Origin: Burkholderiales bacterium | GTDB lineage: Bacteria > Pseudomonadota > Gammaproteobacteria > Burkholderiales > SG8-39 | Reading direction: 5' to 3' | DNA length: 64,000 nucleotides | NCBI GenBank assembly: GCA_035519135.1 | Contig: DATIWX010000044.1 | Location: forward strand, 39,270-103,269 | Shown here: positions 42,866 to 61,793 of the stretch, in pieces | Layout of the letters: each line of letters starts with the position of its first letter | How positions within the stretch are numbered: the stretch's first letter is position 1 | Notes under the pieces: model-generated | The model's input: the letters and a program-made list of their open reading frames with translations, nothing else | Database searches by the model: none | Told to the model about the DNA's origin: nothing | Position numbers and translations under genes: made by a program

Positions 42866-42953
42866 GATGGTCTCCTTACGTGCAGTGCCCGGCCAGATAG
42901 GCGCCGGGGATCGAATTGGACCCAAAGTCTAGGATTGTTAAGGCCTTTCCACC

Positions 42954-42967
42954 TTGACTGTAGTCAA
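42954..42967. promoter_or_regulatory. Crp/Fnr-type box upstream of oxc and the regulator
   Basis: TTGAC-TGTA-GTCAA; minus-strand TAGACT at 42931-42926. Confidence 0.8.
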
Positions 42968-43000
42968 TAAATCCCGCCTAATTGCCCGCTCACCCACCGC

Positions 43001-43621
43001 ATGCCGTCCTTGCCCGTGTCGGCCATCCTCAATCACCCGCAGCGCAACACGATCCGCCTGCAGCTCAAGCAGAACCTGATCCTGCGCGAAATGCCGGTGC
43101 CCGCCTGGGACGACCTCGAGCCGCAGCTGGAGGTCGCCGAGTACCGCAAGGGTGAGCCTCTGGTGAGGCAGGGCAGCACGAGCATGGAGCAGTTCTTCAT
43201 CCTGGACGGGATCCTCAAGCGCGTCGTCAGCAATCCCCAGGGCAAGGAGATGATCCTGCGCTTCGCGGCCGAAACCGACATGGACACGTCCTATGCCGCA
43301 TGGCGCATGAAGACCCCCATCCCCTACAGCATCGCGGCAGTCACGAAGGTGCGTGTTGCGCGCCTGTCCATGCCCCACTGGGTCGAGTTCCTCGAGCGCC
43401 ACGACGAAGTGAAACTCCGCTTCGAATACGAGGTGATGCGGCTCATGTCCGAAGTCATGGCGCACACCATCACGCTGCATCTGCTCGACGCCCCCGGGCG
43501 GCTCGCGCGCTTCATGCGCAAGCACCAGGACCTGCTCGGCCGCATTCCCAAGAAGGAACTGGCGTCCTATCTCAATCTCACGCCGGAGACCCTGTCGCGC
43601 CTACGGCAGCGCGTCGCTTAA
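43001..43621 (+). CDS. Crp/Fnr family transcriptional regulator
   Basis: cNMP-like beta-barrel; HTH ELASYLNLTPETLSR; no Cys residues, so no FNR-type Fe-S ligands. Confidence 0.92.
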   Translation: MPSLPVSAILNHPQRNTIRLQLKQNLILREMPVPAWDDLEPQLEVAEYRKGEPLVRQGSTSMEQFFILDGILKRVVSNPQGKEMILRFAAETDMDTSYAAWRMKTPIPYSIAAVTKVRVARLSMPHWVEFLERHDEVKLRFEYEVMRLMSEVMAHTITLHLLDAPGRLARFMRKHQDLLGRIPKKELASYLNLTPETLSRLRQRVA

Positions 43622-45135
43622 GCCGTCCGCTTCCCCTGCAGCGTGCGCAGCAGCGTCCTGATCAGAGGCCAGAAAAGCAGGAGCAGCGCGAGCGCGGTCA
43701 GGCCTCCAACGAGGCCGTTCGAGAAGAACACCATGAGATCGCCCTGCGAGCCCTTGATGGCGTTGCGGAAGTTCTCTTCCGCCCTGTCGCCCAGGACGAG
43801 CGCCAGCACCATGGGCGCCAGCGGATAGCCGAGCTTCTTGAAGGCGTAGCCGATCACGCCGAAGACGACCATCAGATAGACGTCGAACATCGAGTTGTGC
43901 ACGGTGTACGCGCCGATCGCGCAGATCACGATGATGACCGGCGCGATGATCGAAAACGGAATGCGCAGGATGGCGGCGAACAGCGGGACGCAGGTGAGCA
44001 CGACGATCAGCCCGGCAATATTCCCCAGATACATGCTGGCGATCAGGCCCCACACGAAATCCGGCTTCTCCACGAACAGCAGCGGCCCGGGCTGCAGGCC
44101 CCAGATGAGGAGGCCGCCGAGCAGCACCGCGGCGGTGGGCGAACCCGGCACGCCGAGCGTGATCATCGGCAGCAGCGCCGACGTCCCGGCGGCGTGCGCG
44201 GCAGTCTCCGGCGCCACCACGCCCTCGACCTTGCCGTTGCCGAAATCCCGCCCGTCCTTGGAGAGGCGCCGCGCGAGGCCGTAGCTCATGAACGACGCAG
44301 GCGTCGCCCCGCCCGGCACGATCCCCATGAAGCACCCTACCGCGGAGCTGCGCAAGGAAGTCGCCCAGTAACGCGGCAATTCTTTCCAGGTTTCCAATAC
44401 GACTTTCATGTTGATCTTGGCGTTCGCTCCCTTGAACGCCAGGCCTTCTTCCAGTGTCTCCAGAATCTCGCCGATGCCGAACAGGCCGATGACCGCGATC
44501 AGGAAATCGAACCCCTTGAGCAGCGAAGTAAAGCCGAAGGTGAGGCGCAACGTTCCGGTGACGCTGTCCAGGCCGACCGCCGCGAGGGCGAACCCTATCA
44601 TCATCGACGCGACGGTCTTCGCCGCGTTGCCGCCGCTCATCCCGACGAAGGCGCAGAAGGTGAGCAGATAGACCGCGAAGAACTCCGGCGGACCGAATTT
44701 CAGGGCGAATCCCGCAACGACTGGCGAGAGGAAGGTGATCATGATCACCGCGATCAGCGCCCCGACGAATGAGGAAGTGAACGCCGCGGTCAGGGCGCTG
44801 CCCGCTCGCCCCTGCTGGGCGAGCGGATGCCCGTCGAACGTGGTTGCCACCGACCAGGGCTCACCGGGGATATTGAAGAGAATCGAGGTGATGGCCCCGC
44901 CGAAAAGCGCACCCCAGTAGATGCAGGAGAGCAGGATGATCGCCGAGGTAGTGCCTCCGGGCTGCTGAGCCATCGAGAAAGTGAGCGGCAGCAGGATGGC
45001 AACACCGTTTGCGCCGCCCAGCCCGGGAAGCACGCCGATGATGATTCCCAGGATCACTCCGACGAACATCAGCACCAGGTTCAGCGGCGACAAAGCGACG
45101 CCGAACCCCCCCAGCAATGCATTGATTTCTTCCAC
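43618..45135 (-). CDS. Tripartite tricarboxylate transporter large permease (TctA family)
   Basis: GVLPGLG, ILFNIPGE, GVVAPETA, LGVPGS, WGLQPGP. Confidence 0.93.
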   Translation of the reverse strand: MEEINALLGGFGVALSPLNLVLMFVGVILGIIIGVLPGLGGANGVAILLPLTFSMAQQPGGTTSAIILLSCIYWGALFGGAITSILFNIPGEPWSVATTFDGHPLAQQGRAGSALTAAFTSSFVGALIAVIMITFLSPVVAGFALKFGPPEFFAVYLLTFCAFVGMSGGNAAKTVASMMIGFALAAVGLDSVTGTLRLTFGFTSLLKGFDFLIAVIGLFGIGEILETLEEGLAFKGANAKINMKVVLETWKELPRYWATSLRSSAVGCFMGIVPGGATPASFMSYGLARRLSKDGRDFGNGKVEGVVAPETAAHAAGTSALLPMITLGVPGSPTAAVLLGGLLIWGLQPGPLLFVEKPDFVWGLIASMYLGNIAGLIVVLTCVPLFAAILRIPFSIIAPVIIVICAIGAYTVHNSMFDVYLMVVFGVIGYAFKKLGYPLAPMVLALVLGDRAEENFRNAIKGSQGDLMVFFSNGLVGGLTALALLLLFWPLIRTLLRTLQGKRTA

Positions 45136-45181
45136 CCGATCTCCTATGCGCGGCGCGGCCCGCCCGCTCGCCCGTTCGCGT

Positions 45182-59661: not shown

Positions 59662-59676
59662 GTCTCCTGGCGCCCG

Positions 59677-60555
59677 CTACTTCAGCACGGACTTGAGCAG
59701 CCTGCCCATCTCCGCGGGATTCTTCGTCGTCTTGATCCCGCATTCCTCCATCACCGCGAGCTTCTCCTGCGCCGTGCCCTTGCCGCCGGAGATGATGGCG
59801 CCGGCGTGGCCCATGCGCTTGCCGGGAGGCGCGGTGACGCCGGCGATGAAGCCGACGACCGGTTTCTTCATGTTGGCCTTCACCCAGTACGCCGCGGTCT
59901 CCTCGTCCGAGCCGCCGATCTCGCCCACCATGATCACCGCGTCCGTTTCCGGATCGTCGTTGAACATCTTCAGCACCTCGACGTGCTTCATGCCGTTCAC
60001 CGGATCGCCGCCGATGCCCACGCAGGAGGACTGCCCCAGGCCGAGCTCCATCAGCTGGCCCACCGCCTCGTAGGTGAGCGTGCCCGAGCGCGACACCACG
60101 CCGATGCGGCCTTTCTTGTGGATGTGTCCGGGCATGATGCCGATCTTGATCTCGTCGGGCGTGATCAGGCCCGGGCAGTTGGGCCCGATGAGCCTGGTCC
60201 TCCTCCCCTGCATCCTGTACTTGGTGCGGATCATGTCGCGCACCGGGATGCCCTCGGTGATGCAGATGACCAGGTCGAGGTCGGCCTCGACCGCCTCGTC
60301 GATCGCGGCGGCCGCGAAAGGCGGCGGCACGTAGATGACCGAGACGTTGGCGCCGGTCTTCTGCTTCGCCTCCTTCACCGTGGCGAAGATCGGGATGCCC
60401 TCGTAGGTCTCGCCGGGTTTCTTCGGGTTGACGCCTGCGACGTAGCAGTTCCTGCCGTTGGCGTACTCCTTGCCCATCTTGGTGTGGAACTGCCCGGTCT
60501 TGCCGGTGATGCCCTGTGTCATCACCCGCGTGTTCTTGTCGATGAGGATGGACAT
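59677..60555 (-). CDS. sucD: Succinate--CoA ligase alpha subunit
   Basis: [31 protein letters not shown] phospho-His; TGATG overlap with sucC. Confidence 0.95.
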
Positions 60556-61724
60556 CAGTGCTTCCCCTTCGACGCGGCCACCACCTTCTGCCCGGCGTCC
60601 GCCATGTTGTTGCCCGAAATGATCGGCAGGCCCGATTCGGCGAGGATGTTCTTGCCCAGGTCGACGTTGGTGCCCTCCAGGCGCACGACCAGCGGAACGC
60701 GCAGGCTCACCTGCTTCGCCGCCGCCACCACGCCCGCCGCGATCACGTCGCACTTCATGATGCCGCCGAAGATGTTGACCAGGATCGCCTTCAGGTGCGG
60801 GATGCGCAGCATGATCTTGAAGGCCTCGGTCACCTTCTCGGTGGTCGCGCCGCCGCCCACGTCGAGGAAGTTCGCGGGCGCGCCGCCGTAGAGCTTGATG
60901 ATGTCCATGGTCGCCATGGCGAGGCCCGCGCCGTTGACCAGGCAGCCGATGTCGCCGTCGAGCTGGATGTAGTTGAGGTCGTACTTCGAGGCCTCGACCT
61001 CGGCCGGGTCTTCCTCGTCCAGGTCGCGCAGCTGCTGCCATTCGGGATGGCGGAAGCTCGCGTTGTCGTCGAAGTTGATCTTGGCGTCGAGCGCGACGAC
61101 CCTGCCGTCGCCGGTGAGGATCAGCGGATTGATCTCGGCCAGGCTGCAATCGGTCTCGTCGAAGGCCTTGTACAGCCCCTTCAGGATCGCGCGCGCCTGC
61201 GGCACGCTCGCCGACGGAATGCCGATCTTCGCCGCGACGCCGTCCGCTTCGGCGTCCTTCAGCCCCGCGCCCGGATCGACGAATACCTTGTGGATCTTCT
61301 CGGGCGTGTGCGCGGCGACTTCCTCGATGTCCATGCCGCCTTCGCTCGAGGCCATCAGCGCGACGCGCTGGGTGCCGCGGTCGACCACCATGCCGACGTA
61401 GAGCTCTTTCTTGATGTCCGCGCCTTCCTCGATGAGCAGTCGCCGCACCTTCTGCCCCTCCGGCCCGGTCTGGTGGGTCTTCAGCATCATGCCGAGGATC
61501 TTGCGGGCCCACTCGCGCACCTCGCCCTCGGATCTTGCGACTTTCACGCCGCCGCCCTTGCCGCGGCCGCCGGCGTGGATCTGCGCCTTCACCACCCACA
61601 CCTTGCCGCCCAGCTCGCGCGCCGCTTTCACGGCCTCATCGACGGAAAAGCAGGGAATGCCGCGAGGCGTCGCGACCCCGTACTTCCGCAGTATTTCCTT
61701 CGCCTGGTATTCGTGGATTTTCAT
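60555..61724 (-). CDS. sucC: Succinate--CoA ligase (ADP-forming) beta subunit
   Basis: [45 protein letters not shown]. Confidence 0.95.
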
Positions 61725-61779
61725 CGCTTGCGTCCCTGATAGTAGCCGCAATCATCGCCGCGCGCAGCGCGAACGCTCA

Positions 61780-61793
61780 TTGACCCGCGTCAA
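61780..61793. promoter_or_regulatory. Crp/Fnr-type box upstream of sucC
   Basis: TTGAC-CCGC-GTCAA; only a weak -10 candidate (GATGAT) at equivalent spacing. Confidence 0.7.

Follow-up and report, generated by a model that had tools for sequence, protein, structure and literature searches.

A cysteine-free Crp/Fnr-family regulator predicted to control oxalate and formate genes through TTGAC-N4-GTCAA boxes in Burkholderiales

A 64,000-nt stretch of contig DATIWX010000044.1 (assembly GCA_035519135.1; hereafter the window) from a Burkholderiales bacterium carries five copies of the palindrome TTGAC-N4-GTCAA upstream of genes for oxalate and formate metabolism, and one of these copies adjoins the gene for a Crp/Fnr-family regulator (43001..43621, plus strand). 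The source genome, labelled G000, comprises 3.64 Mb at 66.5% GC. The five palindromes are probably (roughly 85%) the operators of this cysteine-free regulator, which is predicted to be a class II activator of the oxalate and formate genes and to respond to a small carboxylate, most likely oxalate. The regulon is separable from that of FNR by reciprocal natural losses of the two proteins and by the spacer of the palindrome. The original prediction of a dedicated Crp/Fnr regulator without an Fe-S cluster and with class II geometry emerges as the best reading; cross-binding by FNR is possible.

Boxes and predicted promoters in the window

When up to one mismatch is allowed, the window contains five matches to TTGAC-N4-GTCAA, against 0.98 expected, and none of 100 shuffles gave five. 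All are intergenic and each lies upstream of minus-strand genes. They are the palindromes that had been reported ahead of oxc, tctC, fhs, a formate dehydrogenase and sucC, and they are the sole matches in the window. Box 1 (42954..42967; TTGAC-TGTA-GTCAA) lies between oxc and the divergent regulator gene, 33 bp ahead of the regulator start codon. Box 2 (46853..46866), which has one mismatch (ATCAA), is upstream of tctC, and boxes 3 (49364..49377), 4 (57418..57431) and 5 (61780..61793) are upstream of fhs, fdhB and sucC, respectively; the last is lineage-limited.

Predicted -10 elements occur on the minus strand at a narrow range of distances from the box centres. These are TAGACT (42926..42931), 29.5 bp from box 1, for the oxc-frc-formyltransferase operon; TATAAT (46826..46831), 28.5 bp from box 2, for tctCBA; TATAGT (49335..49340), 30.5 bp from box 3, for fhs-terC; TAAAAT (57389..57394), 30.5 bp from box 4, for fdhBA; and a degenerate GATGAT (61751..61756), 30.5 bp from box 5, for sucCD. 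The first four thus fall within the 28.5-30.5 bp originally claimed for them. No promoter with both consensus hexamers (-35 and -10) was found in 42700-62000. The predicted -10 spacing and the lack of a consensus -35 agree with class II architecture, in which the operator lies near -41.5 and is accompanied by a -10 and a weak -35.

The fdhB ATG lies only 6 nt past the -10 (57382-57394, minus strand), and the same gap is seen in G062, G012, G040 and G080. Judged from this gap, the fdhBA transcript is predicted to be leaderless.

Conservation across relatives

Boxes were counted around regulator orthologs, at the best 80 of 159 loci, where a box is TTGAY-N4-RTCAA within 250 bp upstream of the orthologous gene and counts are over assessable cases. 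Further comparisons used 121 family genomes, 251 order-level genomes and 351 phylum-level genomes. Two truncated loci (sucC in G080 and fhs in G039) and genome G234 were left out of the counts.

A box is present at the regulator in 78/78 loci, at oxc in 63/67 and at fhs in 37/42. Failure of the boxes to persist in relatives had been named as a reason to abandon the prediction, and they are kept. The tctC gene has a box in 30 of 53 loci and a one-mismatch box in 5 more, and of 15 fdhB loci, which come from 14 regulator-bearing genomes, 13 have a box. A box precedes frc in 12/63 loci, and in several loci it is frc that faces the regulator. Among operon-internal controls, boxes were counted at the formyltransferase gene in 0/53 loci, tctA in 0/63, fdhA in 0/17, the kinase gene in 0/20 and terC in 1/39. 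On the target side, a -10-like xAxxxT is located 28.5-30.5 bp from the box centre at oxc (63/63), fhs (36/37) and tctC (30/30); on the regulator side the count is 11/78. The median distance from the box to the aligned regulator start in orthologs is 36 bp.

The regulator is found in 97 of the 121 family genomes and 53 of the 251 order-level genomes, and a profile search of the 351 phylum-level genomes detected it in 7, all of this order (Burkholderiales). The closest relatives retrieved by searching with the regulator come from betaproteobacterial metagenome-assembled genomes (MAGs). At the order level, 44 genomes have both regulator and oxc, 9 have the regulator only, and 5 have oxc only. In 20 kb around oxc, the exact box is absent from all five oxc-only genomes (loci L264, L266, L267, L268 and L265), in which a GntR (4) or LysR (1) gene is located at or near oxc, pointing to other undescribed oxalate regulators.

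Eight of the regulator-only genomes were fetched. One has an oxc gene cut by a contig end, and seven have a distant thiamine pyrophosphate (TPP) enzyme and frc behind the box. This TPP enzyme (L246:2541-4253; also L269, L270 and L272-L276) is about 25% identical to Oxc and scores below all NCBIfam cut-offs, its best models being PRK05858 and then 2-hydroxyacyl-CoA lyase. It is possible that the enzyme is a non-orthologous oxalyl-CoA decarboxylase.

Separation from the FNR regulon

The source genome encodes a five-cysteine FNR with ETVSR (C37:2616-3359). Among its Crp-type helix-turn-helix matches, ExxSR without a preceding arginine occurs only in this FNR and in the window regulator. Genome-wide, there are 16 exact copies of TTGAC-N4-GTCAA, of which 12 lie beyond the window, and TTGAY-N4-RTCAA occurs at 59 sites, 55 of them intergenic. 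Many of these sites precede FNR-type targets, such as hemN, ccoN, and genes for universal stress proteins, hemerythrins and a small heat-shock protein, and the hemN site is a perfect TTGAC-N4-GTCAA. The motif by itself is not diagnostic of the regulator. One 50-kb region (C135:11403-61261) has 14 TTGAY-N4-RTCAA sites, nearly all FNR-type, and is apparently a micro-oxic response island.

The two sets of sites differ in the spacer. Its central dinucleotide is CA, TG or TA in 44/54 other sites of the genome; none of the 5 window sites and 4 of the 44 distinct ortholog boxes have such a centre. As TTGACTGCGGTCAA illustrates, ortholog boxes prefer G at the second spacer position, and the fdhB and sucC boxes of the window have a CG centre, which is outside both majority patterns. 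The -10 elements of FNR-type sites lie at 28.5 bp in 20/31 calls, whereas those of oxc and fhs boxes lie at 29.5-30.5 bp. Genome-wide counts of TTGAY-NG-NN-RTCAA did not separate regulator-bearing from regulator-free genomes among the 121; these counts are uninformative because chance matches in coding sequence swamp a regulon of four to six sites.

An FNR homologue was found in 104 of the 121 family genomes. FNR-type sites, counted as strand hits to TTGAY-SYAN-RTCAA, have a median of 15 per genome with FNR and 2 without, and genomes with no hit number 0/104 with FNR versus 6/17 without. Of the genomes with the regulator and without an FNR match, 11 have at most three FNR-type hits, and boxes in the cluster are retained in every one of these. 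The congeners G040 and G080 have no FNR-type hits, compared with 34-54 in FNR-bearing congeners. G040 has 11 sites, none of them FNR-type, with boxes at sucC, fdhB, fhs, a PanE-like gene, oxc and mdh/sdhC. The complete single-contig genome G193 encodes no PF00027 protein other than the regulator, and FNR was not found in it. One box of this genome is at oxc; another, at a distance of about 39 kb, precedes oxlT, an oxalate/formate antiporter gene (above the TIGR04259 cut-off), with GAGAAT at 29.5 bp. G258, also a single contig, has no FNR match and four sites, two in the cluster and two at unidentified genes. Because G193 and G258 each consist of a single contig, the assembly caveat on FNR absence is removed for these two.

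Loss of the regulator is seen in other relatives. In genus g14 of the same family, it was found in none of four genomes. A single contig of G042, a member of this genus, carries sucCD, fdhBA, fhs, oxc, frc and the formyltransferase gene, none of which has a box; G042 also has FNR and 49 FNR-type hits. In G014, the cluster is likewise free of boxes, and oxc adjoins tctA without an intervening regulator gene. The original prediction would have been abandoned if the boxes were bound only by a global FNR; they persist without FNR (11/11; G193) and vanish without the regulator (7 loci).

Two possible extensions of the regulon were rejected. For a wider regulon in G193, 15 of 25 sites were viewed (oxc and 14 others); only one of the 14, at oxlT, is clearly intergenic, and the rest lie in crude open reading frame (ORF) calls, one of them ambiguous. 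Extra sites in G040, G057 and G102 are mostly at unrelated genes, apart from one before a PanE-like gene.

The regulator protein

The regulator has 206 amino acids, no cysteine, and an ETLSR recognition helix at its C-terminus, which bears out what was first noticed about it. Domain searches, a structure model and an alignment describe the protein. Its N-terminal part is a beta-barrel of the cyclic-nucleotide-binding type (PF00027, 39.7 bits; cut-off 27.5), and the model (pLDDT 91.7) resembles GlxR with a Foldseek TM score of about 0.8. The Crp-type helix-turn-helix consists of modelled helices 184-190 and 195-205 with invariant E196, S199 and R200, and has a Pfam PF13545 score of 20.6 bits, under the cut-off of 27. 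Crp/Fnr members typically have a beta-hairpin wing after the recognition helix. The regulator has none: it stops 6 residues past ETLSR, and ortholog tails are short and unconserved. As in the family generally, a dimer is expected. An ESM Atlas search with the regulator returned only generic Crp/Fnr names.

The alignment comprises 50 sequences, namely the window protein and 49 ORFs, cut from 53 non-redundant regulator ORFs by removal of one mis-called ORF and three with poor start calls or long tails. The four cysteines of FNR are missing, in that no column has cysteine in more than 10 of 50 orthologs. The recognition residues E196, S199 and R200 occur in 50/50 and are preceded by P, A or S, which corresponds to ExxSR without the R180 of CRP. 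Also invariant in 50/50 are R74 and R87, which align with V49 and S62 of E. coli CRP in a gapless alignment (129 residues, offset 25); in CRP numbering, we take V49 and S62 to line the cAMP pocket. The CRP residues E72, R82, S83, T127 and S128 are replaced in regulator orthologs by S/A, a variable hydrophobic residue, P, V/I and M, so the protein has neither the cAMP pocket of CRP nor its RExxR motif. Further invariant residues are K73, T96, Y98, W101, H155 and H160. Two invariant arginines at pocket-equivalent positions, together with the lost cAMP residues, suggest that the ligand is a small anion, plausibly a dicarboxylate.

Proposed mechanism

A regulator dimer would read the TTGA half-sites with its ETLSR helices, as its FNR-type motif suggests. 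From a box centred at about -41.5 to -42.5, it would recruit sigma-70 polymerase to promoters that have a -10 and no consensus -35. This would be known class II Crp/Fnr activation rather than a new kind of mechanism. Oxalate would be imported by TctABC in this organism and by OxlT in other lineages, and then converted into formate and CO2 by Frc and Oxc; the formate would be oxidised by FdhBA or loaded on folate by Fhs. The oxc-side box, about 33 bp before the regulator start, would probably also serve to repress transcription of the regulator gene. The sucCD genes were likely recruited in some lineages only, and possibly supply a CoA thioester that starts the Frc cycle. In E. coli, according to PMC3720670, a separate CoA transferase primes this cycle.

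Observations against the proposed regulon and alternative explanations

Several observations weigh against the assignment of the boxes to the local regulator. Window half-sites are identical to those of the genome's FNR sites, and 10 of the 12 exact copies of TTGAC-N4-GTCAA outside the window, including that of hemN, are FNR-type by spacer. The spacer rule is broken in 4/44 ortholog boxes, among them the oxc box of G193. Three genomes in which FNR was not found (G003, G016 and G027) have 15-26 FNR-type hits; FNR or a similar protein is probably present there and unassembled. In genomes scored regulator-free, fdhB has a box in 5/11 loci. These come from five genomes in which the cluster ends at a contig end where the regulator belongs, one of which (G066) retains a regulator fragment, and are likely assembly gaps. 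The tctC gene lacks a box in 18/53 loci. An exact box is found within 300 bp of sucC in only 3 of 12 regulator-bearing genomes, all congeners; among the other nine, one has a box at 477 bp that precedes an ORF upstream of sucC, near matches whose -10 spacing is as expected occur in two, and the remaining six lack any match. It is found in 0/9 genomes without a regulator match and without sign of a cut cluster. Of the five-operon regulon that was proposed, four target boxes are conserved and the sucC box occurs in few lineages, and sucCD is a lineage-limited member. Most of the genomes are MAGs, related genomes are not independent, and there is overlap between the two locus samples, so the counts are not meant as independent P-values. 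Finally, the pocket residues are placed through a weak sequence alignment (E 1e-5).

A very improbable explanation is that the boxes belong to the global FNR regulon, such that O2 switches the oxalate and formate genes and the local regulator is incidental. The shared half-sites, the five-cysteine FNR and the approximately 44 FNR-type sites at hemN, ccoN, usp and hemerythrin genes would fit it, as would a similar geometry with the -10 commonly at 28.5 bp. However, the boxes are kept in genomes without FNR or FNR-type sites, the same genes lack boxes in G042, where FNR is present and the regulator missing, and the spacer centre and -10 distance are unlike those of FNR-type sites. A milder version, compatible with control by the local regulator, is that the regulator owns the boxes and that, in species that have FNR, some of them are bound by FNR as well, which would result in a dual input of oxalate and O2. 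Both proteins have ExxSR helices and share half-sites, and the spacer separation is a tendency with exceptions, but avoidance of the FNR-type centre by 5/5 window boxes and 40/44 distinct ortholog boxes suggests that the sets are kept apart, and we consider this dual input unlikely. Still less likely is a regulator that represses and is released by its ligand, or TTGAC halves that are just -35 elements. TTGAC does agree with the -35 consensus at 5/6 bases, and a box at -41.5 is adjacent to the -35 region. However, the -10 is too far from the upstream half-site for the two to pair, no promoter with 16-18-nt spacing was found, and the spacing of 28.5-30.5 bp is fixed on the target side only, as in established class II activators.

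With the boxes assigned to a local activator, the signal has to be considered. The regulator might serve a C1 or formyl-CoA regulon and sense formate, formyl-CoA or another acyl-CoA. This is a sizeable minority possibility, since fhs, fdh and the formyltransferase gene are core targets and 7/8 regulator-only genomes have the distant TPP enzyme instead of oxc. On the other hand, two invariant arginines and a lysine would suit a dicarboxylate, and oxlT belongs to the regulator cluster in two of these regulator-only lineages, G153 and G176; in G176 and in G193 a box stands immediately in front of it. In our judgement, oxalate is the leading candidate ligand at a little under even odds; formate follows at long odds, as does any other molecule, and a CoA ester is less probable than either. 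Tentatively, the regulator may be a direct oxalate sensor, representing a wingless Burkholderiales subfamily of Crp/Fnr proteins in which the cAMP pocket is rebuilt around two arginines, the half-sites are those of FNR, and a separate regulon is defined through the central spacer dinucleotide.

Target genes and their neighbours

Genes were named by NCBIfam cut-offs (oxc, frc, fhs, Fdh-alpha, sucC and sucD) or by Pfam (tctABC and TerC), and the identities given earlier to oxc, tctC, fhs, the formate dehydrogenase and sucC were upheld. All of the following genes are on the minus strand. The oxc operon contains oxc (oxalyl-CoA decarboxylase, 41114..42865; above the TIGR03254 cut-off), frc (formyl-CoA transferase, 39833..41104; above the TIGR03253 cut-off) and, third, a formyltransferase-family gene (38898..39830). 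The product of the last resembles the N-terminal domain of 10-formyl-tetrahydrofolate dehydrogenase (E 9e-60) more than Met-tRNA formyltransferase (E 2e-36), and the true fmt gene of the genome sits on contig C144. The protein may transfer formyl groups between folate and CoA, by analogy with a proposal for HypX made in part of PMC6802093. After this operon come genes for a CHASE2 Ser/Thr kinase (36035-38608), whose position is kept in many relatives, and a PP2C phosphatase (35193-35969).

The tctC-tctB-tctA genes (43618..46769; Pfam TctA, TctB and TctC) encode a tripartite carboxylate transporter, for which oxalate is the presumed substrate. The fhs-terC unit (46890..49287) consists of fhs (formate-tetrahydrofolate ligase, 47617..49287; above its NCBIfam cut-off) and a gene for a TerC/YjbE-family membrane protein (46890..47588; Pfam), which is found behind fhs in most orthologous clusters. 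An NAD-linked formate dehydrogenase is encoded by fdhB (NuoE/F-like) and fdhA (52756..57382; NCBIfam for Fdh-alpha, and Pfam), and succinyl-CoA synthetase by sucC-sucD (59677..61724; NCBIfam), the only sucC homologue found in the assembly. Between sucD and fdhB is a gene for a TPR/glycosyl transferase family 41 protein (57775-59661), which is missing there in several congeners.

In other lineages, genes for PanE-like reductases (L254:13876-14880 and L069:8646-9656) and FAH-family proteins, as well as oxlT, join the cluster, some of them behind boxes. By analogy, the PanE-like reductases are putative oxalyl-CoA reductases. No oxlT or close PanE-like orthologue was found in the source genome, where the best match is 40%.

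A perfect box with a non-FNR spacer lies between divergent mdh and sdhC genes in the source genome (C33:42519). It was rejected as a core member, as the exact box is present in this genome and 4/5 congeners and in 0/9 other regulator-bearing genomes. A box at mdh/sdhC also occurs in 1/15 genomes without a regulator match, at a different distance. The box is thus confined to the genus as far as conservation goes, and its membership in the regulon is doubtful.

Relation to known systems

At class II promoters of FNR and Anr, a TTGA-N6-TCAA operator is centred near -41.5. E. coli FNR and Anr likewise have an ExxSR recognition helix, according to part of PMC3590769, a source that distinguishes ExxSR from RExxR motifs and in that part leaves oxalate unmentioned. 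The regulator differs from FNR/Anr in its lack of Fe-S cysteines and of a C-terminal wing, in the spacer centre, in a -10 about 1-2 bp further out and in its oxalate and formate targets, and its genome encodes a true FNR as well. With CRP and GlxR it shares a common fold, as indicated by the GlxR structural match and the gapless CRP alignment, but it lacks the cAMP-binding residues and RExxR, and identity is 17-18%. The best PDB sequence match is 3DN7 (E 2e-10; profile 7e-14), a short cyclic-nucleotide-binding regulatory protein of 194 aa whose entry name gives no function. This protein also stops just past the recognition helix, but it is distant, lacks the two pocket arginines and has EYLSE for ETLSR.

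DNR has no Fe-S cluster and reads FNR-like boxes, and the targets of DNR and FixK are denitrification or micro-oxic genes. The conserved targets here are instead oxc, frc, fhs, fdh, tct and oxlT, and the match of the regulator to DNR is just E 5.5e-5. Heme/NO sensing is a further trait of DNR; in the regulator, two histidines (H155 and H160) are invariant. FixK is likewise described, in part of PMC3590769, as a non-Fe-S protein that reads FNR-like boxes. EvgA similarly activates frc and oxc in the E. coli yfdXWUVE operon (in part of PMC3720670), but it belongs to an acid-stress two-component system and is an unrelated protein with an unrelated operator.

Part of a 2024 review (PMC13409138) regards control of oxc/frc expression as understudied, with pH as the main known cue. 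Joint increases of frc, oxc and oxlT in Collimonas pratensis are reported in part of PMC12542777, and induction of oxalate clusters near a fungus in part of PMC5209427; the relevant part of PMC11461619 mentions no regulator. A full-text literature search, which covered few subscription journals and outside of which lie regulon databases such as RegPrecise, found no description of the regulator or the box. Within the literature searched, both the regulator and its regulon are apparently undescribed.

Significance

For a bacterial group that occurs commonly in soils and fresh water, these results name a candidate regulator, define an operator and list the predicted targets. The regulator is found in the cultured genera Collimonas, Polynucleobacter, Ramlibacter, Pseudoduganella and Herbaspirillum (NCBI names) and Hylemonella, and therefore the question can be tested immediately. 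The box also offers a means of finding oxalate genes; TctABC, a candidate importer, and the distant TPP enzyme, a candidate replacement for Oxc, are examples. If the proposal is true, an activator that binds oxalate would lend itself to use as a biosensor, and the coexistence of this regulator with FNR would be a natural test case of paralogous regulators that are insulated from each other by indirect readout of the spacer.

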